Below, in pieces: positions 1,773-53,972 of a stretch of 64,000 nt of DNA (positions are counted from its first letter, which is position 1; the number at the start of each line of letters is the position of its first letter). The DNA is from Planctomycetota bacterium (GTDB lineage Bacteria; Planctomycetota; PLA2; JAEUHO01). The translations under genes were made by a program, and so were the position numbers. The DNA lies in the NCBI GenBank assembly GCA_050248855.1, contig JBFWRP010000005.1, positions 8,389 through 72,388 on the forward strand, in the 5' to 3' direction. The notes under the pieces were generated by a model. That model saw only the letters and a program-made list of their open reading frames with translations. It searched no databases and was not told where the DNA came from.

Positions 1773-1899
1773 CGGCGGTCTCCCGTACGAGCGAGGTCGC
1801 GCGTGCGCACCTGGCCCGGGATGGTAGAGAGCGACGCCGCCAAGCGTCCGCCGGGCGTGTCCGACGGCTACGTGGCGGCGTGCAGGTGAGGCGAGGGGA

Positions 1900-4828: not shown

Positions 4829-4917
4829 TCCGGCGTCGGGACGCGCCGGGGTACGTGCAGCGGACCTGGATCGCCTGCGGCGGGGGTCGTCCGTTGCGCG
4901 AACGGGACCGTACCGAG

Positions 4918-4998
4918 CCAGGTGAGATTCCCGCTTCACGCTGCGGCGCAACCAACCATGGGGAGATCAACCGGGGCGTGAAGCTGGAATCTCACCCG
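4918..4998. repeat. Large imperfect palindrome (22-bp arms ccaggtgagattcccgcttcacgc / gcgtgaagctggaatctcacccgg, about 33-nt loop) between convergent genes
   Basis: Seen directly. Shares the gtgagattcc/ggaatctcac arm motif with the palindrome at 39262-39360. Confidence 0.75.
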
Positions 4999-5032
4999 GC
5001 TCGTCCCCTGGGGTGCGGAGATGTCTCCGTGC

Positions 5033-5057
5033 GGGACCGAGCATCTGGCGAGCCGCC
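5033..5057. repeat. Copy of interspersed core motif gggaccgagcatctggcgagccgcc
   Basis: Identical 25-mer at 13289-13313. Reverse-complement copy (ggctcgccagatgctcggcc) at 46806-46825. Diverged copy at 18494-18512. Confidence 0.8.
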
Positions 5058-5084
5058 CCCCCGACGGCACAGCCACCGCCCGAA

Positions 5085-5554: not shown

Positions 5555-8500
5555 CTACCGCTCGGCTTCGGCGGCCAGCTGGGCTTCCCGCTCCGCCCGC
5601 CACCCTTGCTGGACGGTGCCGCGCAAGACGATGTCGTCCACGAGGACCGGCGTCCACGTCAGCAGGCTGATCCGGCCGCTGCCGTGCCGCATGGAGCGCT
5701 GTCGGTCGCTGCGCGTCCCCAGGTCGGCCCAGCCCCCCTCGCGATGGCTGGCCACGAGGCGCCCATCCACGTGCAGCTCGAGCCGGTCGAGCTGGCGCAC
5801 GACGCGCACGCGGTACGAGCGTCCGGGCTCGAACGCGAACAGGCGCCGGTCGGGCGACGCCATCTCCTCGCGTCCGAGCTGCGTCCAGCGCGCTTCGTTC
5901 GCGGCTGCCGCGTAGTCGGGCCACGACCAGCCCTGCAACCACGAGCTGCCGAACGTCGTCAGCGGCGTGGTCTGGACGCCCACGCCCCGGCCCAAGCCGT
6001 AGATGTTCCATTCGGGCGGGCCGGAGCGCTTCTCGCGATCGAGCGGAGGCACTCCCTGCGGCAGGCGCTGCCCCTGGGCCCGCGGGTCGGCGGAGACGAC
6101 GGCGAGCTTGGGCCCGTCCATGTCGAAGGCGATCAGGGGGGCACCCGCGCGCGTGTGGAGCGTGAGCTCCAGCTCGAACGGCAGGGCCGGGTCGAACATC
6201 TGCTCGAACGAGAGCGGACGGTCGTAGATCGGCGCTTCGGCGCCGGCGAGGAGGAGGAGGGCGTAGGGGTCCGTGCCCGCGCCCGGCGTGACGACGCCCT
6301 CGCCCGCGCCTTCGCGGACGAACTCGCCCAGGCCGTGCAAGACGTTGCGTTTCTGCACCTCGGGGGTGTCCAGGTCGAGACGGAACTCGACGGCGTCGGC
6401 GCCGCTGGCCGCGACGCGCGCACCGGGAACCAGCGCACGCAGAACGTCGCGCTCCAGCCCTTCCCGGGTCTTGAGCAGCAGCTCGTCGACGCGGGCGCGT
6501 CGTTCGTCGTACGTCCGTGTCCAGCGCAAGCGGTCCGCCGGATCGCGCAGACGCTCGAGCTCTTCCTGGGCCTCGACGTAGCGCTCCTCCTCCAGGTAGG
6601 TGGACGCGTCGGCCTCGGCCTGGGCCGCGCGCTGCTCGCGAGCCCGCTGCGCCGTCACCACCAGGTCGCGGCGCGCGCGCACGAAGCGAGCCCAGAGGCC
6701 GCCCTCGTCGCCCAGGGCGTCGAATGCGCGACCGGCGCTCTCGTGCGCAGCGACCGTCGGCCGGAGGTCCACACCGGGAGCATCCTCGATCGGTCCGAGG
6801 GCCGACAGCCGCGCGTACGCTTCCACCTCGGGCGTGACCCCCGAGGCGCTCCCGCGCGCCCATGCCAGCAGGACGTCCGGGTGGATGGCCCGGATCGGCA
6901 GGAAGCGCGCATCGGCCTGGCTGCGCTTGGCGTCGACGATCTCGAGGCCGCGGCGCTCGAGGTCCACGCGGCGGACGAAGATGCGCTCGGGCAGGGAACC
7001 GGTGAGCTCGGCGCCGGCACGCAAACGCGGGGCCTCGAGCGGCGCACGGGGGTCGATGCGCTCCAACGCCTTCTGTTCCAGGGCGTCGAGCGGGTCGGCC
7101 GCCGCCAGCAGGGCGGCCAGCCGCGGCTCGGCGCCGAGGGCGGGGTCGCGGTCGCGCTGGCGGCGGGCCACGAGGTCGCGGAGCGCCGCCGCATCGCCGG
7201 CTTGGATGGCCTGGAACGCTTCCGCCTCCGCCTCGGCCCAGGCGGCATCGCGCAGCGCATCGTGGCGGCCCAGGCCTGCGCGCAGCTCGGAGGCCAGACG
7301 CCGCGCCAGCGACCCGCCGTCGGGTTGCTCGCGGTCGGCATCGCGGGCGAGCGCCTCGAGCTTCTCGGCCAGCGCGCGCCACGCCTCCGCATCCGGCGGC
7401 GCACCGCTGTCGAGCCACGTCTTGGCCTGCAGCAGGCGCTCCTGCAGCAGCTGGTGCAGGGCGGCCTGGGTGCGGGCCTCGATCGTCGTGCGCAGCTGCT
7501 CGACGAGCCGACCGAGCACGGCTTCTGCCGGCCCCAGGACGGCGCCGTCGTGCTGCGCGAGCAGCGCCAGCTCGTCCTCGATGCGCGCGTACAGGTCCGC
7601 AAGTCCCCGATCGAGCGCCGAGCGGTAGGCCGCCAACGCCCGCGCATCCAGGGCCTCCCGCGCCCGGGCCTGCGTCCCGCGCGCATCGAGCTCGCCAGCC
7701 GCCGCGCCCAGGCGTTCGACGGCCCGCCCGACGCGACGTGCCTCTTCTCGCGCCCGCTCCAGCGCGAAGCCGGCCGGGACGTTCCGATCGTTGGCCAGCC
7801 ACGCCTCGTGGCTCGCGGCGGACGACACCAAGGCCTCGAAGCTGCGGGCCCCGGCCATCTCGGCCGCGGCGCGCTGCTGCTGCTCGACCAAGCGCCTCTC
7901 CCCGGCGCGCGCGAGGATGCGCTCGAGCTCGGAGCGCGCGCGGATCACCCAGGCACTGACCGAGCCGTCGTCGGTGCCACCCTGCTGGGCGAAGACGGTG
8001 GACGCGGCGCCGAGCTCCTCGGCGGCCAGGGGCGCCTCGAGCGCCTTGAGAAGCTGACCGAGACGCGTGAGATCGCCACTCACGTCCCGCAGACGACGCA
8101 GGTGCTCGTCGACGGCCCTGCGCCGCGTGCTCTTGCTCTGGGCCTGCGCCTCCCAGTCGGCGAGTTCCTTCTCCTGCTCCACGGCCTGTCCCAGGCTGCG
8201 CTCGAGGCGACGGGAGCGCTCCGCCCATTGGCTCTTGAGCCTGTCGTGCGCGCTGATGGCGTTGGCCGTGTCGACCTCGGCCGGGGCGTCGATGTCGCTC
8301 CAGCTCGTGGTCCGCAAGAGGCGCTCGGCGCGCTCATCCGCCTCGACACGCGCCCGGGAACGCTCGCGGTGTTGCAGGAGCAGCCCGGCCGCCACACCGA
8401 GCACCACGACCACGGCGAGTGCGATCCCCGCGCGACGCGCGCCCACGCGCAGGCGTCGACGGAGCAACCACGCTTCCCAGTTGCCCGTGAACCCCACCGG

Positions 8501-12961: not shown

Positions 12962-13288
12962 GATCCTACCTGCGGCTCCGCCTCGGGACGTTCCGGACGT
13001 CGGTGACCCTTCGCAGCAGGAGGGCCGCCAGTCAGGTGCACGCCTACACCGCTGGGTACCCGCTCACCTACCCCGAAAACAAGCCGCCAGGCGCGCATAG
13101 ACGCCGCTCGGAGCGGAGCGCCACCTCCACGAACCGGGTCGCCAGGGCGACGGTAGCGCGCCCGCATCGGCGACGACTCGTGGTCTGGTCCCCCGTTGGC
13201 GTTCCGCGCTCACGCGCGGATTCGGTGCTCCGGCTTCGCCTGCGCAGCAGGGGTGCTGGTTCCGCACCACCCCTGCACCCCTCACGGT

Positions 13289-13313
13289 GGGACCGAGCAT
13301 CTGGCGAGCCGCC
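13289..13313. repeat. Copy of core motif gggaccgagcatctggcgagccgcc
   Basis: Identical to 5033-5057. Confidence 0.8.
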
Positions 13314-13420
13314 CGTCCGCACTCCAGGGGCTGAACACTGCAATGGAAGGTGCCTGAACTCCGGGCTCGGACAGGACAGCCACGCTTCCATGGGAGGGGG
13401 TGCCGCGCGCATCGAGACGC

Positions 13421-13520
13421 GGTACGGAGGCGGGGATTTCTTCCGCAACTTGCCGCCCTGCGCTTCGGCATGCGGAAGTGCCCATCGGCAAGTTGCGGAA
13501 GAATTCCCCGCCTCCGTACG
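13421..13520. repeat. Giant palindromic element (35-bp arms, 30-nt loop)
   Basis: Left arm ggtacggaggcggggatttcttccgcaacttgccg. Right arm cggcaagttgcggaagaattccccgcctccgtacg. Its loop contains catgcggaag, the reverse complement of cttccgcatg in the loop of the 39262-39360 element. Confidence 0.8.
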
Positions 13521-13544
13521 GGCTTTGCCGTCGGCATGAAGAAC

Positions 13545-15230
13545 TTACACCGCTGGGTCGCGGCGCAGGGCCCGAAGCCCCTCGAAGAGGACGAGCGCCT
13601 CGAGCGCGAGGAACAGGGCGCCGAACGTGACGACGACGGCGTTGCCCCGCTCGGTCTCGGCCACGAGGCCCTGGATGCCCGCCCAGGTCGTCATGGCCAG
13701 CAGGAACAGCAGGGGCACCAGGATGACGATGCGCGGCCGCCCCGCGCGCCGCAGGACGACGTAGAGGACGAGCAGCGTGAGGGCCCCGATCAGCTGGTTC
13801 GTCGTGCCGAAGACCGGCCACAGGATGAACCCGCCGCTGCCGATGCCCTTGCCCCCGTCGGTGAGCAGCGCCAGGAGGGCCGCAGGCACGACCGCCACGG
13901 TCGTCGCCACGTAGCGGTTGCGCAGGGACGTCACGCCGAAGGCATCGCCGAGCTCGGTCAGGCAGAAGCGCTGGATGCGGGCCGCGGTGTCCAAGGTGGT
14001 GGCGGCGAACGAGATGACGATGACGGCGATCACCGTCTGCGCGAGCTGGGTGTCGCCGGCGAGCAGCGGCTCGAGGAAGCGACTGGCCCCCGCCACGAAG
14101 TGCGTGATGCCGGTGTTGCCCACCTGCTGCCAGTCGCCGTACTGGGCGCGCCACTCTGCGGCGCTCCCCAGCCCCGCGGTCGTGGCGAGCACCGCCAGCA
14201 TGGCCAAGACGCCCTCGCCGAGCATGCCGCCGTAGCCGATGGTGCGCGCATCGCGCATGCGGTCCAGCTGCTTGGCGGTGGTCCCACTGGCAACCAGACC
14301 GTGGAAGCCGCTGATGGCTCCGCACGCGATCGTGATGAACAACATCGGCAGGAGCCCCGGCGTTCCGGGGGGGACGTCGTGGTTGATCGCCGGTGCCGTC
14401 ACCTCCAGGCCCGGCGAAAGGGCAAGGCCCAGCAGGAGGCCCCCGAGGCCCAGGAACAGCTGGTGCGAGTTGATGTAGTCGCGCGGCTGGAGAAGCACGC
14501 GCACCGGGAGCACGCTGGCAACCCAGGCGTAGGCCAGCAGGAACACCACCCACGTGGCGATCGGCGAGCCCGCCAGCTCGAGCGCCGGTGGGAGCACGCC
14601 GGCCTCGGGGTGCCGCGCGAACACCACGACCAGCGCGTAGAGCACGGCCAGGGCGAGCAGCGAGGGCACGAGCAGCCGCCCGCCGCGGCCGTAGACCCAC
14701 CAGCCCAAGACGAGCGCCACGACGATCTCGAGGTTGATGGGCCAGACGCTGGCCGGCACGTTCGTGAACAGCACGGCGATCAGGTACGCGAAGACCGCCA
14801 GCACGATCCACGTGAGCAACACGATGATGCCTAGGAACCCGACGCGGGCGCGCGGCGAGAGGATGGTGCCCGCCAGGTCGCCGATGGTGCGGCCGCCGCG
14901 CTGCGCCGAGAGGGCCAACGCGCCGAAGTCGTGGACGGCGCCGATGAAGATGGTGCCGAGCACGACCCACAGCAGGGCGGGCAGCCAGCCCCAGATCACC
15001 GCGATGGCCGGGCCCACGATGGGCGCGGCGCCGGCCACCGAACAGAAGTGGTGCCCGAACAGGACGTGCTTCCCGCAAGGGACGCAGTCGACACCATCGG
15101 GCGCGGTGTGGGCGGGCGTCGGCTGCGCGTCGTCGAGGGCAAACACCTTCCGCTCGAGCCAGCGGGCGTAGGTACGGTGCGCGACGACGAAGGCCGCAAG
15201 GGCCCCCGCGGCAAGCAGGGCGGCGTTCAT
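13545..15230 (-). CDS. cstA: Carbon starvation protein A (CstA family peptide/pyruvate transporter)
   Basis: 561-aa polytopic membrane protein with the characteristic CstA N-terminus (CVPCGKHVLFGHHFCSVAGAAPIVGPAIAVIWGWLPA). Confidence 0.85.
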   Translation of the reverse strand: MNAALLAAGALAAFVVAHRTYARWLERKVFALDDAQPTPAHTAPDGVDCVPCGKHVLFGHHFCSVAGAAPIVGPAIAVIWGWLPALLWVVLGTIFIGAVHDFGALALSAQRGGRTIGDLAGTILSPRARVGFLGIIVLLTWIVLAVFAYLIAVLFTNVPASVWPINLEIVVALVLGWWVYGRGGRLLVPSLLALAVLYALVVVFARHPEAGVLPPALELAGSPIATWVVFLLAYAWVASVLPVRVLLQPRDYINSHQLFLGLGGLLLGLALSPGLEVTAPAINHDVPPGTPGLLPMLFITIACGAISGFHGLVASGTTAKQLDRMRDARTIGYGGMLGEGVLAMLAVLATTAGLGSAAEWRAQYGDWQQVGNTGITHFVAGASRFLEPLLAGDTQLAQTVIAVIVISFAATTLDTAARIQRFCLTELGDAFGVTSLRNRYVATTVAVVPAALLALLTDGGKGIGSGGFILWPVFGTTNQLIGALTLLVLYVVLRRAGRPRIVILVPLLFLLAMTTWAGIQGLVAETERGNAVVVTFGALFLALEALVLFEGLRALRRDPAV

Positions 15231-18467: not shown

Positions 18468-18480
18468 TGGTTGCTTGGCG

Positions 18481-18650
18481 TGCGGCTAGGCGGCTCGCCG
18501 AGTGCTCGGCGGCGCCGGCGCGATCCGCTCCTCGAGTGAACAGACCACGAGTCGTCGCGGATCGCTTGGCGGCGCCTTCGCCCTGACGAGCCGAGGTGCG
18601 ACGGCCGCGACTCGAACCCAGGCGTGCTTGCTTCTGGGTGGCTTGCGCAC
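18481..18650. repeat. Interspersed structured repeat element (paralogue of 46769-46956)
   Basis: Shares ctcctcgagtgaacagaccacgagtcgtcgc (30/30) and gccctgacga with the copy after ftsK. Here the shared core is flanked by an internal inverted repeat gcgatccgc...gcggatcgc. Sits between convergent genes. Confidence 0.8.
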
Positions 18651-26737: not shown

Positions 26738-27757
26738 CTACTTGCCGGGCGCCGGCGCGGTCAGCTCGACCGTGGCCGCCTTGCCCGCCTCCACCGTGAC
26801 GGTGACGGTCTCTTCCCAGTCCGCCCCGTACTCGTAGCTGGAGATCTTGTTGTCCACGACCACGGGCGTCTCTTCCATGCCCTCGTGCCAGACCTTCACC
26901 GTGTACTCGCCGGGCGGCACGCCTTCGAGGACGAACTTGCCCTTGGCGTCGGTCACGGCGAAGTAGGGGTTGGTCACGGCATGGATGTAGGCGTTCATCC
27001 AGGGATGGATGTCGCACTTGACGATGTACTTGCCTGGCTTCGCCAAGTAGGCCTCGGCCACGATCTGCTGCTTGGTCCCCGCGCCGGAGCCGAAGTTGAA
27101 CACGGTGTTGAGCATCGACTCCAGGTAGCCGTGGATGTTGTGGAGCGCGTTGTCGCTGTTGTCCACGGCCAGCTGCGTCTTCTCGCGCGTGACCATGACG
27201 TGCGGGATGTACTGGCAGGACTTCTGGTCGATCGTCGTCAGACGGTCCTTCGGACGCAGCGCTTCGGGCCAGTCCTTGCCCTTCTCGATGCCCTCGATCA
27301 CGACGACGCAGTTCGCCAGCCCAAGCGTCTCGGGATCGAACACGCAGCGCTCCGACGGATGGCTCTCGTGGCCGCACGCCTCGAGATCCTTGTCGACGAC
27401 GATGGTGCCGATGACGGGCTGGCCGGAGAGCTTGATGGTGCCTTCGATGCGGCCGGCGTTGGCGACGGCAGACTCGTCCACCTCATAGCTGTCCTTCTTG
27501 GAACCGCTGCGACTCCCGCGGCCGCGCGCGGGCGCCGCCACCTGCGGCTCGCTCTTCGGCGCGGGCGCGGGACGGGTGAGGTTGGCCGCGGCGACCTCCA
27601 CGACACCGCCGTCGTCCGCGGTGCGCGGGCGCGGCTTCATGGCACCCGTGCGACGCGCGCCTTCCCCCTGGAGATCCACGTCGGGGTGGCCGCAGGCCGG
27701 GACGAGGGCGAGCAGGGCGCCCAGGGCGAGCGAGGGAACGAGCGAGGCGATGCGCAT
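26738..27757 (-). CDS. Lipoprotein with cupredoxin-like (type-1 copper, amicyanin-type C-x2-H-x2-M) domain plus C-terminal beta-sandwich domain
   Basis: Lipobox LVPACG. ALHNIHGY followed about 45 residues later by KCDIHPWM, which is His...Cys-x2-His-x2-Met spacing as in amicyanin. C-terminal GKFVLEGVPPGEYTVKVWHEG. Calling it a cupredoxin is inference. Confidence 0.55.
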   Translation of the reverse strand: MRIASLVPSLALGALLALVPACGHPDVDLQGEGARRTGAMKPRPRTADDGGVVEVAAANLTRPAPAPKSEPQVAAPARGRGSRSGSKKDSYEVDESAVANAGRIEGTIKLSGQPVIGTIVVDKDLEACGHESHPSERCVFDPETLGLANCVVVIEGIEKGKDWPEALRPKDRLTTIDQKSCQYIPHVMVTREKTQLAVDNSDNALHNIHGYLESMLNTVFNFGSGAGTKQQIVAEAYLAKPGKYIVKCDIHPWMNAYIHAVTNPYFAVTDAKGKFVLEGVPPGEYTVKVWHEGMEETPVVVDNKISSYEYGADWEETVTVTVEAGKAATVELTAPAPGK

Positions 27758-27957: not shown

Positions 27958-28878
27958 TCAGCGCGGCGGGATGGTCCGCTCGACCCGCACCGTCTGGCCG
28001 GACCCGAGGGTGACGGGGATCTCCTCGACCCAGTCCTCGCTGTACTCGTAGGAGCTGATCTTGTTGTCCACGAGGATCGGGACCTCGCCCATGCCCTCGT
28101 GCCAGATCTTCAGCTTGTAGGACCCGGGCGGCACACCCTCCAAGGCGAAGGTCCCCGAGGTGTCCGTGACGGCGAAGTAGGGGTTGGTCACGGCGTGGAT
28201 CGTGCCGTTCATCCACGGGTGGATGTCGCACTTGAGGAGGTACTTGCCGGGCTTCGCGAGATAGGCCTCGGCGATCACGTGCCGCGTGCCTGCGGACCCC
28301 ATCCCGAAGCTGCTGCCGGTTCTCGACATGCGCTCGTGATACGCATGCAGGTTGTGGAGGGCGTTGTCCTGGTTGTCGACGACGATCCAGGTCTTCTCGC
28401 GCAGCACCTGCACGTGCGGCACGAACATGCACTGCCGCATGACCAGCGTGCCCTTGCGGTCCTTGGGCTTCATCGCCTCGGGCCAGTCCTTGCCCTTCGC
28501 AATGCCCTGCAGGGTGATCACGCAGCTGGCCAAGCCCAGCGTCTCGGGGTCGAAGACGCAGCGCTCCGACGGGTGGCTCTCGTGGCCACACGCCTCGACA
28601 TCCTTGTCGATCACGATGCGGCGAAGCTCGGGCTTGCTCTCGAGGCGAAGGACGCCTTCGATGCGCCCCGCGTGCTCGAGCACGGACGCGTCCACGACGT
28701 AGTCGTCCTTCTTGGACCCACCCCGCGAGCCCCGGCCACGCACGGGGGACGGGGCTGGCGCCGACGGTGCCTTCGCGTGTTCGTCCGCGGGAGCGGGTGC
28801 CAGCGCGCCGTCGCCCCCGCCGCCACAACCGACACCGGTCAGGAGGGCGAGGGTGAGAAGCCAGGCGGCGTGGCGCAC
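27958..28878 (-). CDS. Paralogous cupredoxin-like lipoprotein (tandem duplicate of 26738-27757)
   Basis: GTG at 28878 preceded by GGAAGGAGG. Lipobox LLTGVGCG. Same ACGHESHPSERCVFDPETLGLA and KCDIHPWMN motifs. About 60% identity to the neighbour by eye. Confidence 0.55.
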   Translation of the reverse strand: MRHAAWLLTLALLTGVGCGGGGDGALAPAPADEHAKAPSAPAPSPVRGRGSRGGSKKDDYVVDASVLEHAGRIEGVLRLESKPELRRIVIDKDVEACGHESHPSERCVFDPETLGLASCVITLQGIAKGKDWPEAMKPKDRKGTLVMRQCMFVPHVQVLREKTWIVVDNQDNALHNLHAYHERMSRTGSSFGMGSAGTRHVIAEAYLAKPGKYLLKCDIHPWMNGTIHAVTNPYFAVTDTSGTFALEGVPPGSYKLKIWHEGMGEVPILVDNKISSYEYSEDWVEEIPVTLGSGQTVRVERTIPPR

Positions 28879-36762: not shown

Positions 36763-37222
36763 GTATGTCCGCTGGTGCTCGGGAGGCAGGGATGGACCGC
36801 TGGCGACCCCCGGCCTCCCCGCCGGGATCGCGCCGTGAGTCTAGGGATCTGGGCCCCCCCTCCGAAGGTTTGCCGCCCCCGCGACCGTGCGCGCGAGGCC
36901 TCCTCGCAGGGGCTGGTCGGCGAACGTGCGTTCGTCGGGTCGGAGGCGCGCCGGGCGAAACCACAGCGCTCGTGCGATACATGAGAACGGCTCGCAGGAT
37001 GAAGGTGGCTCTCGACCTCTGCTCGGGAGCCACCCTGGGGCGTTCGCAATGTCGCGCGCGCTCGACACGCAGCGCCCCGGTGACGAGTCGTCTGGACGCT
37101 CGATCCGGGCGAGGCCCAGGTTTCCGGGCCTCGACCTCGCGGTCCCCCTCTTGCGTTCGAGGCGGTCGTGGTGGAGGACAGACGCGTCCGGCGGCAACGC
37201 CTGCGCGTCGCGAGGACCCGCC

Positions 37223-39244
37223 ATGCCCATCCTCATCCGCTCCGTTCGCCGCTTGCCCCTCGCCCTCCAAGCCGCCGCCGTGGCGACCCTCCTCACCGCG
37301 TGCGGTGCTCCTACCGACACGCTGCGTCCGGCGACGCTGTCGATGTCGCCGCGCGTCGTGGACGCCAGTGCCAGCGCGCCGTGCGTGATCCGGGGCATGG
37401 ACTTCGGTGACGGGCCCGTCTCGGTGCGCCTCATCGACCATGACGGTCGCATCGTGGGCCCCGTGCGGACCACCGAGCCCAGTGCCGACGGCCACCAGCT
37501 GGCCATGCTGACGGCGATCCTGCCCGAGCTCGAAGACGACACGTGGGTGCGCGTGCAGATCCAGACGGCCGACGGGCGCATCGCCTGCACGGACGAGAAC
37601 GTGCTCGTGAAGGCCGGCGTCGAGGCGCCGCGCCTGATCGATGGCCGCGAGACCAACCCGTCGGACGCCGCCATGGGCTCGACCGGAATCGGTCTGCGAC
37701 GCGATGTGCCGCCGGCCTTCGCCGATGGGGTGGCGACGCTGGCCCGACCCGAGCAGAAGAACCCGCGCACCATCAGCAACACGTTGGTGGCGCAGCCGGC
37801 GGCCCTGCCGCCCGTGACCGGGGCGGTGCCCTCGGACCTGTTCTGGTGCTTCGGCCAGTTCCTCGACCACGACCTGGACCTCTCGCCCGAGAGCGAGAGC
37901 GGCGAGCGCGCCGACGTGGCGATCCCCGCAGGTGACCCGTGGTTCGACCCGTTCGCGACGGGCGCCGTCGTGCTGCCCTTCAAGCGCTCGGCCGCCCTCA
38001 CCGGGAGCGGCGACGGGCCTGGCGACCCGCGCCGGCCCATGAACGCCATCACGGCGTGGATCGACGGCTCGAACGTGTACGGCTCCGACCCGGAACGGGC
38101 CCGCGCGCTGCGCACGCTCGACGGCACGGGGCGCCTGCGGGTCGACGCCGAAGGCTTCCTGCCCCTCAACACGGAGGGCTTTCCCAACGCGCCTACGCCG
38201 CACGACCCCACGCTGTTCCTCGCGGGCGACGTCCGCGCCAACGAACAGGTCGGTCTGACGGCATTGCACACGATCTTCGTCCGCGAGCACAACCTCGTGG
38301 CCGACGAGCTGCGCGCGGCCAACCCGCACCTGTCCGGGGACGAGATCTACGAGGCGGCCCGCCGCTTCGTCGGCGCCGAGCTGCAGGCGATCGCCTACGA
38401 GGAGTTCCTCCCGACGCTGCTCGGCGAGGGCGCGCTGCCGCCGTACGCAGGCCTGCGCACGGACGAAGACGCCTCGATCGGCGTGTTGTTCTCGACGGCC
38501 GCGTTCCGCCTGGGCCACACGATGGTCGGCGGCACGATCCTCCGGCTCACGCGCTACGGGACGCCGCTTGCCGAGGGCCATCTGAGCCTGCGCGACGCGT
38601 TCTTCCAGCCGCAGATCCTGCGTACGGAGGGCGGTGTGGATCCCGTGCTACGCGGCTTGGCGGCCAACCCGGCCCAGGCGATCGACCCGTTCATCGTGGA
38701 CGACTTGCGCAACTTCCTGTTCGGCCCTCCCGGCGCCGGCGGCCTCGATCTCGCAGCCTTGAACATCCAGCGCGGTCGCGACCACGGCCTGCCGTCGTAC
38801 AACGCGTGTCGCGTGGCCTACGGCTTGGCGCCGCGCGCGTCGTTCGACGAGGTGACGAGCAACCCCGAGGTGCGCACGCGTCTCGCGGCCTGCTGGGACA
38901 GCCCCGATGTCGCCGACCCGTGGCCGGTGCTCCTGGCCGAGGACCGTGCTCCGCTCTCGCTCGTGGGCGAGACGCTGACGACGGTGCTCGCCGACCAGTT
39001 CCGCCGCGTGCGTGACGCCGACCGGTGCTGGTACGAACGGATCTACCTCGGCGAGACGTTGGCGCGTCTGAAGGCCACACGGCTCGCGGACGTGATCCGT
39101 CGCACGACGACGATCCGCAACGAGATCTCGAGCACGGCCATGCTGGTGCCCGAAGTCGGGGCCGCTTCCACCAAGGGCGCCGTGCGCGAGAGCACGCGCA
39201 GCGCCGCGGAGCTGGGCAAGGTGGCGCTGGCCTTGGCGAAGTAG
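37223..39244 (+). CDS. Animal-type haem peroxidase (An_peroxidase family) lipoprotein
   Basis: ATG at 37223. Lipobox LLTACG. Distal His motif FGQFLDHDL. Proximal region FRLGHTMV. Ca-binding-like LDGSNVYGS. 673 aa. The antisense 620-aa ORF is rejected. Confidence 0.8.
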   Translation: MPILIRSVRRLPLALQAAAVATLLTACGAPTDTLRPATLSMSPRVVDASASAPCVIRGMDFGDGPVSVRLIDHDGRIVGPVRTTEPSADGHQLAMLTAILPELEDDTWVRVQIQTADGRIACTDENVLVKAGVEAPRLIDGRETNPSDAAMGSTGIGLRRDVPPAFADGVATLARPEQKNPRTISNTLVAQPAALPPVTGAVPSDLFWCFGQFLDHDLDLSPESESGERADVAIPAGDPWFDPFATGAVVLPFKRSAALTGSGDGPGDPRRPMNAITAWIDGSNVYGSDPERARALRTLDGTGRLRVDAEGFLPLNTEGFPNAPTPHDPTLFLAGDVRANEQVGLTALHTIFVREHNLVADELRAANPHLSGDEIYEAARRFVGAELQAIAYEEFLPTLLGEGALPPYAGLRTDEDASIGVLFSTAAFRLGHTMVGGTILRLTRYGTPLAEGHLSLRDAFFQPQILRTEGGVDPVLRGLAANPAQAIDPFIVDDLRNFLFGPPGAGGLDLAALNIQRGRDHGLPSYNACRVAYGLAPRASFDEVTSNPEVRTRLAACWDSPDVADPWPVLLAEDRAPLSLVGETLTTVLADQFRRVRDADRCWYERIYLGETLARLKATRLADVIRRTTTIRNEISSTAMLVPEVGAASTKGAVRESTRSAAELGKVALALAK

Positions 39245-39261
39245 CGACCACGGCGCCGTGC

Positions 39262-39360
39262 CGTACGGAGTCGGGTGAGATTCCAACCTCGGGCCGCCAT
39301 GCCCTTCCGCATGGGTTGGGTCCTTGCGGCCCGAGGTTGGAATCTCACCCGACTCCGTAG
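39262..39360. repeat. Giant near-perfect palindromic element (35-bp arms, 29-nt loop) between convergent genes
   Basis: Left arm cgtacggagtcgggtgagattccaacctcgggccgc. Right arm gcggcccgaggttggaatctcacccgactccgtag. 34/35 pairing. The loop contains cttccgcatg. Confidence 0.85.
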
Positions 39361-39402
39361 CGCGGAAGCAGCGTCTACGGGTCGGAGCCCGAGGCCGCGA
39401 GG

Positions 39403-44328: not shown

Positions 44329-46770
44329 ATGGCCGCACGATCCACCTCTGCCGCCGCGAGCAAGAGCCGCGCGCGGACCCGTAGTCCTGCCGTCGAGGCG
44401 GAGCCCATCGGCCTCGAGCTGATCGGCTTGGCCCTCGGTCTGGCCTCCTTGCTGTTGTTGGCGGCATTGGCGACCCAGGCTCCCGCGTCCGCGGGCGGGG
44501 GCTGGCGCAACGCCGTCGGAGCGACGGGTCGCGTGGTCGCGCAGGCGCTGACGGGGGCGCTGGGCCTCGGGGCGCTGGCCGCACCGATCTTCGGCCTGAC
44601 CTGGGCGATCGCCTGCCTGCGCGGGCGGCCGCCTGGACGCTGGGCGCTCAAGGCCGCCCTGCTGCCCGTCGCGATGGCCCTCGTGGCCGTGCTGGCGGCC
44701 CTGCTCTTCGAGCGGCTGCACCTGCCGGGCGTCGACCGCTACGGACCCGGGGGCTACTTCGGCCTCGCGCTGGGCACCGCGCTGTATGACGTGATCGGAC
44801 CGTCCTCGAGCCTCGTGCTCGCCGTCGGTCTGCTCGCGGTCGGGGCGTTGCTCGTGGACTTGTCCATCTCCGGCGTCGCGCGGGGCGTCCTGTCCCGCGC
44901 CGGCTCCCCGTCCACCGCGAAGACCTCGCGCAAGGCCAAGCCGCGCCGCGCTCGCGAGGCCGACGAAGTCACGAGCGAAGACGAGACGTGGGACGACGCG
45001 GAGGACGAGGACGAGGAGGGCGACGAGGAGTACGACGAGGACGAGTACGAAGACGACGAGGAGTGGGACGAGGAGGACGAAGACGACGAGGAGGACGAGG
45101 ACGACGAGGCGGAGGCCGAGGACGACGACGATCCCGCGCGTGCGGAGGCGGCGGCCCGGCGGGCCGCGGCCCGCGAGCGCCGCGAGCTGCCTCCGGTCCC
45201 CCGCGACAAGAAGCCCTGGAAGCCCAAGGGCAAGTACGTCCCGCCCCCCATCGAGCTCCTGGCCTGCGGCAAGTCCGTCGAGGAGGCCAACGTCAAGGAG
45301 GAGGTCGAGGCCCGCGCCGACACCCTCGAGGAGACGCTCCGGGCCTTCCGGATCGAGGCCAAGGTGGTCAGCTACCGCCGCGGCCCGGTCATCACGTTCT
45401 ACGAGGTCCAGGTGCCGCCGGGCGTGGCGGGCAGCCAGGTCGCCAAGCGCGCCGACGACATCGGCCGGGCGCTCAAGGTCGGCAAGGTCCGCGTCGTCAC
45501 GAACATGCGCGGCTTGGACACGATCGGCATCGAGGTAGGCAACGAGCAGCGCGACGACGTGACGCTGCGTGACTTGCTCGAGGAGTCGGGGCCCAAGATC
45601 GACCGTCTCGAGATCCCGCTGCTGCTCGGCCGCGACACGTCGGGACGCCCCGTCGTGGAGGATCTGGCCAAGATGCCGCACTGCTTGATCGCAGGCGCCA
45701 CGGGCGCGGGCAAGAGCGTGTGCATCAACTCCGTGCTGCAGTCGATCCTGTTCACGCGCGGGCCCGACGAGGTCAACCTGATCCTCGTGGACCCCAAGCA
45801 GGTCGAGCTGGCCTCCTACGAGGGCATCCCGCACTTGGCCACGGGCGTCGAGACCGACCCCAAGCGGGCCGGCAAGATCCTGCAGTGGGCCGTGGAGCGG
45901 ATGGAGGAGCGCTACCACCAGCTCAAGTGCACGGGCGTGCGCAACGTCAAGGGCTACAACGACCTGCCCGCGGCCCGGCGCGCAGCCTCCCGCGAGCGCC
46001 ACGGGATGGACGAGGAGACGCTGCCCGACCGCCTGCCCTACATCGTGATCGTGGTCGACGAAATGGCCGACCTCATCATGACGGGCGGCAAGGACGTCGA
46101 GCTGGCCATCACCCGCTTGGCGCAGAAGAGCCGCGCGGTCGGCATCCACCTGATCCTGGCCACGCAGCGCCCCGAGCGCACCGTCATCACGGGCCTCATC
46201 AAGGCCAACATGCCGACGCGCATCGCCTTCACCGTGTCGAGCAAGCTCGACAGCCGCGTCGTGCTCGACCAGAACGGCGCCGAGGCCCTGCTCGGCATGG
46301 GCGACATGCTCTTCCTCTCGCCGCGCAGCATGTTCCCGATCCGCGGCCAGGGCGCGCTGGTCACCGACGACGAGGTGCTCGAGGTCGTGCAGGACCTCAA
46401 GAACAAGTACCCGGACGTCGAGTACCAGGACCTGCTCAAGCAGCAGCAACAGACGCAGGGCGATCCCATGGCCCGCGACGAGCTCTACAACGACGCCGTG
46501 CGGCTCGTGCTCTCCAAGAAGCTCGGTAGCGCCAGCATGCTCCAGCGCTGCATGGGCATCGGCTACACACGGGCCTCGCGGCTCATCGAGATGATGGAGG
46601 AGCAGGGCGTGGTGGGCCCCCACCAGGGCAGCAAGGCGCGCGAGCTCTACGTGGACCTGGACGAGTGGGAGGCCGACCTGGCCGCCCGCGGCCCGGCCGA
46701 GAGCCCGGAAGGCCCGACGGCCGAGTACGACCACGACGACCCGCCCGCCGTCGACACCAGCTGGGACTAG
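44329..46770 (+). CDS. ftsK: DNA translocase FtsK
   Basis: N-terminal 4-TM domain. Long acidic linker. Motor with Walker A GATGAGKS and Walker B [8 protein letters not shown]. C-terminal gamma winged helix [31 protein letters not shown]. 813 aa. Confidence 0.9.
   Translation: [813 protein letters not shown]
44995..45135. repeat. Low-complexity GAN/GAG acidic coding tract (D/E run in the FtsK linker)
   Basis: Encodes [46 protein letters not shown]. Confidence 0.7.
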
Positions 46771-46984
46771 AGGTGTCGCTACTGCCCGGCGTGGGGAGGT
46801 GCGGCTCGCCAGATGCTCGGCCGCGCACCACCATCGGCTCCTCGAGTGAACAGACCACGAGTCGTCGCCGATGGTGGCGCGCTGCCGTCGCCCTGACGAC
46901 CCGATCCGCGTCGTAGGCCCAGAAGGCCGGGCCCACGCGGACTCGGCCACGAAGATCCGCCCGCCGTCGACACTAGCTGGGACT
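46741..46984. mobile_element. 188-bp structured repeat element flanked by a 28-bp direct duplication of the ftsK 3-prime end (putative MITE-like insertion)
   Basis: DR1 at 46741-46768 is ccgcccgccgtcgacaccagctgggact. DR2 at 46957-46984 is ccgcccgccgtcgacactagctgggact (27/28). The interior carries the reverse-complement core ggctcgccagatgctcggcc and the 30-mer shared with 18518-18550, flanked by the inverted repeat caccaccatcggc...gccgatggtggcg. Confidence 0.65.
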
Positions 46985-51851: not shown

Positions 51852-53972
51852 ATGGCCACTTCGCCCCGGCGATCGAGGGGACGCGACGACGAGCGCCGGC
51901 CCCGCCGGCCCCGCGACGGCGACACGCCGCCTGCGGCCAAGCCCGTGGTCCCGCCGGTGGTCCCGCCTGCAGCGAAGCCCGTGGTCCCGCCTGCAGCGAA
52001 GCCCGTGGTCCCGCCTGTAGCGAAGCCCGTCGTACCGTCCGCGGCAAAGCCGGTGGTCCCGCCCGCGGCCGCCACCCCCGTGGCCAAGCCGGTCGCCAAG
52101 CCTGCACCGCAGGCGCCGGCTCGACCCAGCTCACCGCCCTCCGCGGCCAAGGCCTCCTCCTCGTCGCGCGGCCCCCGGGCTCGCGAAACGGAGGTGGGCG
52201 GCCGCGGCCGCTCGCAGCGTCGCGGCGGCGGCATGTCGATCGGCTTGGCCTCGGCCCTGGTGGCCGCCGGCATCACCTTCCTCGTCCTGCTCGTGCAGCT
52301 GCTGATGTCGGGCCGCAAGGACGCCGAGGGCTCGCCCACGCGTGACGCCTTCGGCAGCGCCGCGGCAGCCGCCCTCGCGGGCGGCGACGACGCCGCGTGG
52401 ACCGGGGGCGCGCGCGCCGTGGCCTACGATGTGAAGTGGATCGAACGCCAGATCAGCAGCTTGTTCGGTGAACGCGGCGAACGTTGGTTCGACGACGAGA
52501 AGGCGCGCATCAACCCGGACCCGAAAGAGCTCGAGTCCATGGCCATGGACGAGATCGAGGCGATCCAGAAGCGCAAGGCCAAGTGGGACGAGACGGTCGA
52601 GAGACTGGCGGGGGCCAGCGTGGGCGCAGGCGACGACGACTCGCAGCGCATGAGGCGCCTCCTCAACAGGAACTTCCACCGCCTGTACTCGAAGGACGGC
52701 GTCTACCGCGTCATCGCGGCCCACGTGCTCAAGAACCCGGGCGCGGGCGCGCAGATCGTGGTCAGCCAGCCCGACAACGCCACGATTGCCCCCGACTGGT
52801 CCACGTACAGCACGAGCGCATCCAAGGGCGGCTCCGTCTCGGGCCAAGCCTCCATCGGGAGCGACTCCTGGCCCGTCACGATCTACCTGGCGGAGCTTCC
52901 CGGCAGCACCACCACGAGTCGCCTCATGGCCTCGGCAGCCGTCTACGAAGCCGGCTCGGCCGGCGGCGGCGGCGGAGCGGGACTGGGGCTGATCCTGTTG
53001 GTCTTGGGGCCCCTGCTTGCGGGCTTTGCCACCTTCGCGGTCGCCAACGGCTTCGGCGCCAAGATCAAGGCGCTGGCGCGCGAGATCGACCGCTTGGGCA
53101 GCACGGGCGACCCGACGCGATCGCTCCGCGCAGACGGTGCGGAAGCGTCCCTCGTGGCCCGCTCCGTCGAACGCATGGTGAGCACGCTCGAGTTCCGCTC
53201 CAAGCACGATGGCGCGGACCTGGACGAAGTGGCCCAGCGGGAGCGGGCCGTCGCCGAGGAGATCCACAAGGGTCTCGTCTCCAAGCACCCGCCGCGCCTG
53301 GACGGCTACGAGGTGGAGACGCTGTTCAAGCCCGGCTTCGAGATCGGCGGCGACCACTTCGAGTACTTCCGCATCGACGACACGCACCTGGGCCTGATCC
53401 TGCTCGACACGAACGTGCGTGGCCTGCAGGCCGCCTTGGTCATGGCATCCACGCGCGCGTACGTGCGCACGGCGGCGCCCGGCGTGCTCTCGCCAGCCCA
53501 GGTGCTGCGCGAGGTCAACCGTCACCTCGCCGGCGAGCTGCCGCCCGGCCGGCACGTGACGGCGCTCTACGCCGTGCTCGACATGAACGCGGGCACCGCC
53601 ACGCTGGCCAGCGCCGGGCACCTGCCGCTGCTCGTCTACCGCCACGCCGCGGGCAAGCTGTCCATGGTCAACCCCGAGGGGTTGGCCCTGGGCATGGACA
53701 CGGGCCCCGTGTTCGACGACGCGCTGCAGGAGGGCGAGATCCCGCTCGGAGTCGGCGACCGCATCGTCATGTACACGGACGGCGCGCTGAAGATCCAGAA
53801 CGCCGACGGCGAGGAGTTCGGCGAGCAGCGCTTCTACCAATCCGTGTCGCGCGAAGCGCCCAAGAACAGCCAGGCGTTCGTCAACTTCGTCGGCGGCGGC
53901 ATCGACGCGTTCCACGTGGGCGCCCAGCAGAACGACGACATCACGATCAGCACGATCAAGCGGCTGCGCTGA
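51852..53972 (+). CDS. PP2C/SpoIIE-family Ser/Thr phosphatase with N-terminal Pro-rich (AAKPVVPP)n repeat, TM segment and sensor-like middle region
   Basis: ATG at 51852 after AAGGGAGGA. Six PVVPPAAK-type repeats. TM GLASALVAAGITFLVLLVQLL. C-terminal PP2C motifs GGDHFEYF, LDTNVRGLQAAL, YTDGALK, NDDITI. Confidence 0.8.
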   Translation: MATSPRRSRGRDDERRPRRPRDGDTPPAAKPVVPPVVPPAAKPVVPPAAKPVVPPVAKPVVPSAAKPVVPPAAATPVAKPVAKPAPQAPARPSSPPSAAKASSSSRGPRARETEVGGRGRSQRRGGGMSIGLASALVAAGITFLVLLVQLLMSGRKDAEGSPTRDAFGSAAAAALAGGDDAAWTGGARAVAYDVKWIERQISSLFGERGERWFDDEKARINPDPKELESMAMDEIEAIQKRKAKWDETVERLAGASVGAGDDDSQRMRRLLNRNFHRLYSKDGVYRVIAAHVLKNPGAGAQIVVSQPDNATIAPDWSTYSTSASKGGSVSGQASIGSDSWPVTIYLAELPGSTTTSRLMASAAVYEAGSAGGGGGAGLGLILLVLGPLLAGFATFAVANGFGAKIKALAREIDRLGSTGDPTRSLRADGAEASLVARSVERMVSTLEFRSKHDGADLDEVAQRERAVAEEIHKGLVSKHPPRLDGYEVETLFKPGFEIGGDHFEYFRIDDTHLGLILLDTNVRGLQAALVMASTRAYVRTAAPGVLSPAQVLREVNRHLAGELPPGRHVTALYAVLDMNAGTATLASAGHLPLLVYRHAAGKLSMVNPEGLALGMDTGPVFDDALQEGEIPLGVGDRIVMYTDGALKIQNADGEEFGEQRFYQSVSREAPKNSQAFVNFVGGGIDAFHVGAQQNDDITISTIKRLR
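51931..52072. repeat. Tandem 24-nt coding repeat (gcagcgaagcccgtggtcccgcct, about 6 units)
   Basis: Direct reading of the sequence. Encodes AAKPVVPP units. Confidence 0.85.

Follow-up and report, generated by a model that had tools for sequence, protein, structure and literature searches.

Three long inverted repeats in a planctomycetal contig

The window, i.e. the whole 64-kb stretch of DNA analysed here, has a G+C content of about 72% and contains three long inverted repeats, designated wA, wB and wC (Table 1). By exact protein matches it is assigned to contig JBFXDE010000010.1 of NCBI assembly GCA_050181445.1 (positions 8389-72388). Genes were called by third-position GC (GC3), followed by a Pfam check. 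wA is located between the convergent genes for a haem peroxidase (stop 39244) and a DAHP synthase (stop 39403). The same arrangement is found for wC, which lies between the convergent genes for a glycosyltransferase-9 protein (stop 4828) and an FHA protein (stop 5085). wB separates two co-directional genes, namely CstA (stop 13545) and a hypothetical gene. The three copies are intergenic and two of them lie between convergent genes, as had been stated in a preliminary description of this DNA.

Table 1. Coordinates of the hairpins and associated features in the window.
Feature	Position	Strand	Remarks
Hairpin wA	39263-39360	.	left arm 39263-39297 (GTACGGAGTCGGGTGAGATTCCAACCTCGGGCCGC), 28-nt loop 39298-39325, right arm 39326-39360
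Hairpin wB	13422-13519	.	diverged subfamily; outer arm GTACGGAGGCGGG as in wA; 98 nt
Hairpin wC	4914-5003	.	most decayed copy; diverged outer arms
Non-coding block	13058-13545	-	488 nt; holds wB; absent from three relatives (junction alignment)
Haem peroxidase gene	probable start 37223, stop 39244		wA 17 nt past stop

In an inverted-repeat scan of the entire window, wB, wA and wC were recovered at ranks I1, I2 and I4, respectively, and the repeat at rank I3 is situated inside a coding sequence. All three loci of related inverted repeats that had been described are present. The third copy, previously given as 4918-4998 with 22-bp arms, has to be redrawn: it extends over 4914-5003, with arms of 33 nt that are 88% complementary. 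The length of wA, wB and wC is about 98 nt each. Counted inward from the GTAC ends, 34 of 36 stem positions are paired in wA, 33 of 36 in wB and 29 of 36 in wC. The predicted RNA folds of the three elements reach -60 to -89 kcal/mol (z -7 to -15 versus dinucleotide shuffles), and the corresponding DNA folds -35 to -51 kcal/mol (z -7 to -12).

The 11-mer GGTGAGATTCC occurs four times in the window, on both arms of wA and wC, where 0.8 occurrences would be expected and none of 100 shuffles reached four. In wC the mid-stem 11-mers GGTGAGATTCC/GGAATCTCACC have a spacing of 54 nt, just as in wA. The outer arm GTACGGAG(G/T)CGGG connects wA with wB, as described before; it is exact in both arms of wB and in one arm of wA, the other wA arm having one mismatch. 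The outer arm of wC, GTACCGAGCCAGG, is a diverged form of GTACGGAGTCGGG. The middle and inner stem of wB differ from the family (GGGGATTTCTTCCGCAACTTGCCG). The inner stem of wC (CGCTTCACGC/GCGTGAAGC) is unlike that of wA, yet its two sides are complementary.

The loops are related as well. The 10-mer CTTCCGCATG is found at 39304-39313 on the + strand in wA and at 13469-13478 on the - strand in wB. The earlier observation of a loop 10-mer in opposite orientations is hereby confirmed, and with it the claim that the elements occur in both orientations. The oriented loop motif CCCATGCGGAAG is located on the - strand in wA. A related motif, GCATGCGGAAG, is present on the + strand in the loop of wB, and the loop of wC carries CCATGGGGAGA, also on the + strand.

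Members of the family and their distribution

The species-representative genomes (about 185,000) were scanned with the two-arm pattern GGTGAGATTCC-N44-64-GGAATCTCACC, and two genomes matched. Eight sites are located in the Planctomycetota MAG HK-STAS-PLAN-1, each with exactly 54 nt between the 11-mers. In all eight, the similarity extends outward (GTACGGAGTCG...CGACTCCGTAC), and the inner stem is complementary on the inward side. A covariance model trained on 11 copies adds one truncated copy in the HK-STAS-PLAN-1 loci. Within the window, the model gives the best score to wA (108 bits), followed by wB (97) and wC (80). Applied to metagenome contigs, the same two-arm pattern returned three copies that were already known and three new ones. 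In total, the family comprises 14 distinct full copies and one partial copy, distributed over two MAGs and several metagenome contigs. The HK-STAS-PLAN-1 assembly has about nine of these (eight with the exact core and one partial), and three are present in 72 kb of the source contig; these 72 kb include an extension of 8.4 kb beyond the window, which yielded no additional copy.

The geometry of the family is fixed: arms of 35 nt enclose a loop of 28 nt (35-28-35 nt), with GTAC at both ends. The core 11-mers are spaced by exactly 54 nt in wA, wC and all 11 full copies outside the window. The consensus arm reads GTACGGAGTCGG GTGAGATTCC A(A/C)C(C/T)TCGGGCCGC and is followed by the 28-nt loop and the inverse of the arm. 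In multi-copy alignments the arms are about 95% conserved over their 35 nt and the 28-nt loop is variable. About half of the loops contain CCCATGCGGAAG or a near variant, by which the element acquires an orientation. wA is 91% identical to copy L002, which belongs to another MAG. Several copies are adjoined by decayed partial arms.

wA, wB and wC are copies of one dispersed family, lineage-specific to uncultured high-GC Planctomycetota. It could be imagined that the three are unrelated terminators that evolved independently, or chance palindromes, and their position at the 3' ends of genes is the one property that fits this. They are, however, of the same length, have 11- and 13-mers and a loop motif in common, and belong with 14 alignable copies from different genomes. 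The further copies in other genomes and the alignable arms refute this explanation, which we regard as practically eliminated. The preliminary description had asked whether more copies exist elsewhere and whether the arms align beyond short segments. Eight full copies and one partial copy in HK-STAS-PLAN-1 and three in metagenome contigs answer the former, and the arms can be aligned over the full 35 nt once the new copies are included. Both results support its suggestion of a REP/BIME- or MITE-like family.

The family is rare in public data. Collections of plasmids, phages and viral contigs gave no match; nothing in them suggests that the element stems from a plasmid or a phage, or that an insertion sequence bears the same ends. 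Protein databases were searched with the two open translations of the hairpin, and no predicted protein was found to overlap them. At the gathering threshold, Rfam has no match over the hairpins; at E<=1 the sole match is mir-434 with 26.8 bits against a threshold of 100, which is meaningless. A scan of the window for tRNA and tmRNA was negative. A literature search for the 11-mer returned unrelated primer and shRNA matches only. In agreement with the preliminary description, no named element corresponds to the hairpins.

Other long hairpins with the 11-mer were also considered. L007, L017 and L019 are contigs of unrelated low-GC bacteria (G+C content of 50-58%), in which a long hairpin behind gene ends carries the same 11-mer on both arms; L007 and L017 have a few more flanking bases in common. 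They were rejected as members, a few chance matches to an 11-mer being expected (by a rough estimate) in very large collections. Because such matches are expected among the long hairpins of the databases, the three are kept as a lead only. L018, L021 and L022 look like chance matches.

Location behind stop codons

The copies adjoin unrelated housekeeping genes at non-orthologous sites. Their neighbours encode aminotransferases, enoyl-CoA hydratase, KAS III, a Bax inhibitor, a Rce1-like protease, CstA and DAHP synthase. Thirteen of the 15 copies either overlap a stop codon or are at most 25 nt away from one, the gaps measuring 3 to 24 nt. The outer arm itself contains the stop codon in L004 and L009; read in one of its frames, the arm supplies a TGA (...GGG TGA). 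The space between two convergent stop codons is filled by at least five copies; in L001, where 108 nt separate the stops, 98 of them belong to the hairpin. L006 is the copy located between divergent genes, in the promoter region. Contigs L011 and L028 break off within some tens of bases behind a stop codon, at or beside the repeat.

This location is the basis of the main rival explanation, in which the hairpins are purely host-functional 3'-end elements. They would act as bidirectional terminators that are independent of a U-tract, or as stabilisers of mRNA 3' ends, and their spread would be secondary. Besides the proximity to stop codons and the filled convergent gaps, the stability of the stems speaks for such a function: both strands of wA and wB fold as RNA at -78 to -89 kcal/mol. 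Like intrinsic terminators, the elements are GC-rich stem-loops that directly follow stop codons and are often common to two convergent genes. Unlike intrinsic terminators, wA and wB have no T-run (U-tract) on either side; their surroundings are GC-rich and contain no terminator-like site. The conserved stem of 35 bp goes far beyond the needs of termination, at about four times the required length. Moreover, it is the sequence and not the structure alone that is conserved across loci and genomes, whereas a function that depends on structure only would not fix the arm sequence across genomes while the loop drifts. The distribution over genes is also at odds with a general 3'-end function. Only about three of the roughly 45 genes in the window carry a hairpin, and the same genes in relatives do without; L006 occupies a promoter region, and wB is inserted in a two-gene unit that is tightly coupled in relatives. 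A purely host-functional 3'-end element is accordingly considered unlikely. The strongly conserved sequence of the arm could likewise reflect a binding site for a host protein.

The flanks were compared as well. Beyond GTAC nothing is conserved except for a one-sided T: a T directly behind GTAC is found on exactly one flank in 9 of 13 copies (p ~8e-4 at this base composition). In the six one-sided-T copies that have the loop motif, the T always lies 3' of the motif strand (6/6), small as these numbers are. The nearest gene is found on the 5' side of the element in L003 and L005 and on its 3' side in L013 and L016. Because the nearest gene lies on either side, the polarity of the element does not follow transcription. 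In these small numbers, the polarity behaves as would be expected of a process at the DNA level.

Compensatory changes in the stem

Pairing was evaluated in an alignment of 17 sequences with 34 stem pairs. Standard pairs are present in 94.9% of the cells, compared to 80.4% when the 3' partners are shuffled, and the fraction falls to 29-46% when the partners are slid by 1-3 columns. Changes on both sides occur in 26 of the 34 pairs, a value that was not reached in any of 500 shuffles, and there is no pair that varies on one side only. The pairing is thus maintained by constraint, through compensatory changes. Only five cells contain G-U, as opposed to 66 double changes. The mismatches in single copies are divided into T-G (5) and C-A/A-C (8), so that neither strand is favoured.

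Selection at the RNA level normally tolerates G-U pairs. Because five G-U cells stand against 66 double changes, a constraint at the DNA level, or one templated during copying, is favoured over RNA selection. We take the data to suggest a constraint on a folded single strand in which Watson-Crick pairs are demanded, as might be imposed by hairpin DNA or by the copying of one arm on the other.

The same numbers bear on structured small RNAs, transcribed independently or processed by RNase III, an alternative that had been raised in the preliminary description. Very stable hairpins with covariation would fit such RNAs, and an interaction site might be provided by the loop motif CCCAUGCGGAAG, which is oriented and semi-conserved. 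The near absence of G-U among the variable pairs and the even split of mismatches between T-G and C-A, by which no strand is preferred, are not what a small RNA would display. The loop motif is missing in about half of the copies, no Rfam family corresponds to the element, and the polarity of the element is independent of the direction of the nearest gene. Nor was a promoter-like site found nearby, including a sigma-70-like promoter around wA and wB; the copies abut coding ends and leave no room for transcription signals of their own. The small-RNA proposal is therefore unsupported and very improbable.

Syntenic regions in relatives

The sites of wA and wB were compared with relatives in which the flanking proteins are 69-92% identical, and the hairpins are absent at the syntenic sites. 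For wB, three relatives with a CstA that is 84-92% identical have the same gene order, with the start of the next gene 2 nt behind CstA. In a relative with a 69% identical CstA this gap is 47 nt. In the window, about 590 nt separate the CstA gene from the next gene, wB included. In the alignment, homology is interrupted by an extra block of ~560 nt, which stands in place of the last codons of CstA, and resumes on either side of this block. Within it lies the 488-nt non-coding block (Table 1), in which wB is accompanied by an 89-nt element and by one copy of a second repeat family. The 488-nt block is bounded by an exact direct repeat of 13 bp, TACACCGCTGGGT, at 13045-13057 and 13546-13558, for which 0.03 matches are expected in the window. 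The covariance model found no member of the family in 44 kb of syntenic CstA-region DNA from relatives.

At the wA site, in relatives with a DAHP synthase that is 85-87% identical, the gene is immediately followed by the hyp387-Rieske-cytochrome b (cytochrome bc) operon. This operon and the conserved upstream sequence are retained in the window, with an extra 2.4 kb in between. The extra DNA consists of the lipoprotein-type haem peroxidase gene (2.0 kb), 17 nt, wA and 42 nt, and the whole segment is additional relative to three related genomes. The model detected no family member in the DAHP-synthase loci L023-L027 of the relatives. A hairpin-sized empty site for wA was sought through the DAHP synthase homologues, and the comparison gave the 2.4-kb segment instead; there is no clean gap of hairpin size because the relatives have a different downstream neighbour. 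wC was found as an identical copy in an independent sample (L038).

Since the relatives do not have the family in their syntenic DNA, the hairpin-bearing DNA is lineage-specific. The presence/absence differences that had been anticipated between genomes are found for the regions that bear wA and wB. They are not found for the hairpin alone, which in both cases is part of a larger segment, and among the compared sites there is no isolated pair of filled and empty sites for it. Polymorphism between strains, which had been proposed as a check, was not seen at wC. As the extra segments exceed the hairpin and wC is identical in the second sample, the mobility of the hairpin itself is an inference.

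The gene-sized insertions bring to mind integrons. The hairpins could be attC-like recombination sites that accompany such insertions, cassettes such as the peroxidase gene being integrated at the hairpin by a site-specific or single-strand recombinase. wA lies close behind the peroxidase stop codon and forms the 2.4-kb insertion together with this gene, wB is contained in an inserted block, and the 298-aa gene of L004 has a hairpin at each end. Like an integron attC, the element is an imperfect palindrome at a gene 3' end that would operate as a folded single strand, and its size of ~100 nt falls in the attC range (57-141 nt). Unlike attC, it has no R''/R' integron core sites (GTTRRRY/RYYYAAC) and no extrahelical bases, the stems being nearly perfect. 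The DNA examined contains neither cassette arrays nor an integrase, and most copies flank ordinary housekeeping genes without any sign of insertion. An attC-like role is hence quite improbable. In a broader version, the hairpins would be the working sites of a single-strand recombination or transposition system that copies the hairpin and also imports adjacent DNA. The 2.4-kb peroxidase segment, the 488-nt block with wB and the L004 gene between two hairpins could be such imported DNA. This version, too, is considered improbable.

Comparison with known classes of repeats

REPINs are hairpin-forming doublets of REP sequences whose mobility is attributed to RAYT tyrosine/HUH transposases (Bertels & Rainey; PMC3337134, PMC3116915). 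They consist of conserved inverted units and a spacer that varies between copies yet keeps the hairpin, with a length of about 89-110 nt (PMC3337134). The planctomycetal element resembles them in several respects. It is an element of ~90-110 nt with two highly conserved inverted units and a less conserved spacer that preserves the hairpin, it is extragenic and occurs in both orientations, and the same unit sequence persists in different genomes. Decayed singlets next to intact copies are also reminiscent of REPINs and of REP/BIME clusters.

There are, however, differences from REPs and REPINs. A REP unit of 20-40 nt folds on itself, whereas a single arm of the present element is not a stable imperfect palindrome. 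A REP-like mini-hairpin within one arm was considered for wA (GTAC GGAGTC GGGTGA GATTCC) and dismissed, the fold being not stable (-1.2 kcal/mol, z 0.18); the single wB arm has a z of -1.4 with a different pairing. The arm is therefore not a classical REP unit. REP units carry a conserved tag, GTAG (or CGTC), which is located at one of their ends and is unpaired (PMC3733652). The end tag found here is a self-complementary, paired GTAC instead, and a GTAG can be read at one end of wA only. REPs and REPINs reach tens to hundreds of copies per genome; here the copy number is apparently in the tens at most rather than in the hundreds. Because of the non-palindromic arm and the paired GTAC tag, the family is not classified as a REPIN.

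A second comparison is offered by the "TIR repeats" (Di Nocera et al. 2013, PMC3733652), which are found on either side of RAYT-like TIRYT genes where a species lacks classical REPs. These are moderately abundant families of long inverted repeats that often form dimers, and some TIRs have a GGGGWSAS motif in common (PMC3733652). The present hairpins are likewise long inverted repeats that are often arranged as dimers. At the place equivalent to GGGGWSAS, the arm has cGGGTGAG, which matches in 7 of 8 positions and is a weak lead. In contrast to the TIR repeats, the DNA examined revealed no TIRtron, the defining arrangement in which a Y1 transposase gene has the repeat on both sides. The element may thus work like a REPIN or a TIR repeat by analogy, without being filed as a member of either.

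Bacterial MITEs with long terminal inverted repeats include Correia/NEMIS of Neisseria and RUP of S. pneumoniae. Such MITEs are ~100-150 bp long, non-coding and intergenic near gene ends, and they can supply stop codons and RNA hairpins. All of these properties apply here: the element is below 500 bp (98 nt), is non-coding with inverted ends of 35 bp, resides near gene ends and can provide both stop codons and RNA hairpins. Presence and absence between related genomes, for the larger segments that bear wA and wB, is a further similarity. Ends of the form G-TA-element-TA-C would fit a TA duplication at a GTAC target; IS630 produces a comparable TA duplication, at CTAG. On the other hand, the element differs from a MITE in being a perfect foldback over almost its entire length (35+35 of 98 nt), and its inner stem differs between copies with both arms changed together. 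A transposase that binds double-stranded ends does not need compensated changes in the inner stem. A parent insertion sequence with these ends was not found in the fetched DNA or in the plasmids, phages and viral contigs. No unambiguous target-site duplication was found; the GTAC ends are palindromic, and a target-site duplication is indistinguishable from them.

Proposed mode of spread

The best explanation, to which we assign a probability of roughly 0.6, is a lineage-specific, non-coding, hairpin-forming interspersed repeat that either is a non-autonomous mobile element or was one until recently. Its copying to new sites would be the work of an enzyme whose gene lies elsewhere in the genome. 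This enzyme would act on a folded, single-stranded hairpin, most likely of DNA, and would recognise in it the conserved sequence of the arm. The presumed mobilisation of REPINs by RAYT tyrosine (HUH) transposases, or that of "TIR repeats" by TIRYTs, may serve as a model. New copies would persist mainly in the few bases behind stop codons, because insertions at this position do little harm.

The genes of the window and of the fetched loci were inspected for a transposase, a RAYT (Y1_Tnp, HUH + Y) or another candidate enzyme, and none is among them. In REP systems the cognate RAYT gene is present in a single copy with the repeats on its flanks. The gene L004:79-972 (298 aa), with its two flanking hairpins, was also considered as a transposase and was discarded, as it has no Pfam support.

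As transcripts include the element in their 3' ends, the hairpin very probably functions as an RNA stem too, one by which read-through or 3' exonucleases are stopped. This is regarded as a side effect and not as the reason for the existence of the family.

Significance

REPs, REPINs and MITEs are well characterised in Proteobacteria and have hardly been studied in the Planctomycetota, a group known for the most part from MAGs. As it stands, the hairpin family extends a known class of bacterial repeats by an example from the Planctomycetota and does not open a new kind of system. In practice the family is a nuisance, as short-read assemblies break at the hairpins (contigs L011 and L028). Should a conserved enzyme recognise GGTGAGATTCC in L007, L017 and L019 as well, a system resembling attC or REPINs would extend across phyla. 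If the mobilising enzyme were found, the fixed 35-28-35 nt geometry, the GTAC ends and the compensatory stems would make a clean system for the recognition of hairpin DNA. For the lineage itself, the hairpins mark the remodelling of the genome, as seen at the rebuilt 3' end of the carbon-starvation gene CstA and at the junction of the acquired peroxidase gene.

A second repeat family in the window

Besides the dispersed 98-nt hairpins (the main family), the window contains copies of another repeat, about 110 nt long (family 2), that likewise forms a long imperfect hairpin. Its conservation pattern is the reverse of that in the main family: the conserved portions are a 5' stretch, GGCGGCTCGCCAGATGCTCGG, and the loop, TCCTCGAGTGAACAGACCACGAGTCGTC, while the inner stem varies from copy to copy, with changes on both sides. 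All four copies are located immediately 3' of a gene and in the sense orientation of that gene. The family has no match in Rfam and was not found in the loci fetched from other genomes. A role as a functional 3'-UTR RNA seems more plausible for family 2 than for the main hairpin family.

Three coding-region repeats in the window, also listed in the table, bear no relation to the hairpin finding.

Locations of repeats and associated features (window coordinates unless a fetched locus, L, is named)
Feature	Location	Strand	Remarks
Family-2 copy	46788-46904	+	
Family-2 copy	18477-18594	+	
Family-2 copy, two pieces	13135-13190 plus 13289-13314	-	
Family-2 short copy	4998-5058	-	Abuts main-family hairpin wC
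89-nt element	13201-13289; L006 1095-1183		
13-bp direct repeat TACACCGCTGGGT	13045-13057 and 13546-13558		Exact
2.4-kb segment	about 37001-39402		Haem peroxidase gene, its upstream 220 nt and main-family hairpin wA
Conserved non-coding stretch	36841-36960; L023 about 7120-7260; L024 about 1730-1860		
Long hairpins outside the lineage	L007 6811-6919; L017 2-103; L019 about 134-239		
Coding-region repeat	44962-45150		FtsK-like gene; acidic Asp/Glu-rich run, periodicity 9-15 nt
Coding-region repeat	51929-52072		SpoIIE-phosphatase gene; five 24-nt tandem units
Coding-region repeat	26749-27537 vs 27963-28751		Tandem paralogous gene pair; ~75% identity, 1214 nt apart

The block behind CstA

In the window, the loop of one family-2 copy harbors an 89-nt element with 95.5% identity between this genome and HK-STAS-PLAN-1, another Planctomycetota MAG with main-family hairpins (locus L006). 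In the regions compared, this element and the hairpins are all that the two genomes share at the nucleotide level. Two small stems can be recognized, GCAGGGGTG...CACCCCTGC and TTCCGCGC-GTGA-GCGCGGAA; folding gives a z-score of only about -2, and Rfam returns no match. The element represents a conserved small RNA or else a further mobile repeat.

The 488-nt non-coding block 3' of the CstA gene, which is missing in relatives, is flanked at both ends by the direct repeat TACACCGCTGGGT. This repeat takes in the last codons of CstA and the TA of its stop codon, and terminal inverted repeats are absent from the block. The direct repeat has the appearance of a microhomology junction or of a long target duplication.

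Hairpin fragments, assembly breaks and look-alikes

Short pieces resembling hairpin ends adjoin intact main-family copies, both in the window (39375-39402) and in the left flanks of the fetched loci L003, L004, L005 and L015. The piece CTACGGGTCGGAGCCCGAGG is found 14 nt past wA; GTCGGGTGAG precedes the L004 copy, GAGTCGG that of L005, and CCGTAC-CTGGC-GTACGG that of L015. The last piece is also present at the 3' end of DAHP synthase in L028 (1665-1690), from a 92% relative, and the available L028 sequence contains no full hairpin. Such fragments may be remnants of decayed copies or the footprints of excision.

Two short-read (Logan) contigs end at or beside hairpin repeats: L011 terminates 29 nt past the CstA stop and L028 65 nt past the DAHP synthase stop. 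This suggests that the repeats fragment assemblies of this Planctomycetota lineage.

Long hairpins are also encountered in three contigs of lower GC content (50-58%; L007, L017 and L019), one of which comes from a Deltaproteobacteria MAG. Their mid-stem bears the same GGTGAGATTCC/GGAATCTCACC as the main family, and they lie behind gene ends wherever genes are identifiable: between convergent FMO-like and ADH genes in L007, and next to 6-phosphogluconate dehydrogenase in L017, where the hairpin is an almost perfect palindrome with 50-nt arms. These hairpins could be distant relatives of the main family or chance matches.

The peroxidase segment and the cytochrome bc operon

The haem peroxidase, encoded from a probable start at 37223 to a stop at 39244, carries a lipoprotein-type signal peptide. 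In three related genomes its 2.4-kb segment is missing at the site between the cytochrome bc operon and DAHP synthase, so the gene was probably acquired. Upstream of the HEAT-repeat/hyp387 gene lies a non-coding stretch, GGGGCGGCAA(A/T)CCTTCGGAGGGGGGG...ATCCCTAGACTCACGGCGCGATCC, that is more conserved across three genomes (the window and the DAHP-synthase loci L023 and L024 from relatives) than the surrounding DNA. This stretch may serve the cytochrome bc operon as a leader or as a regulatory site.
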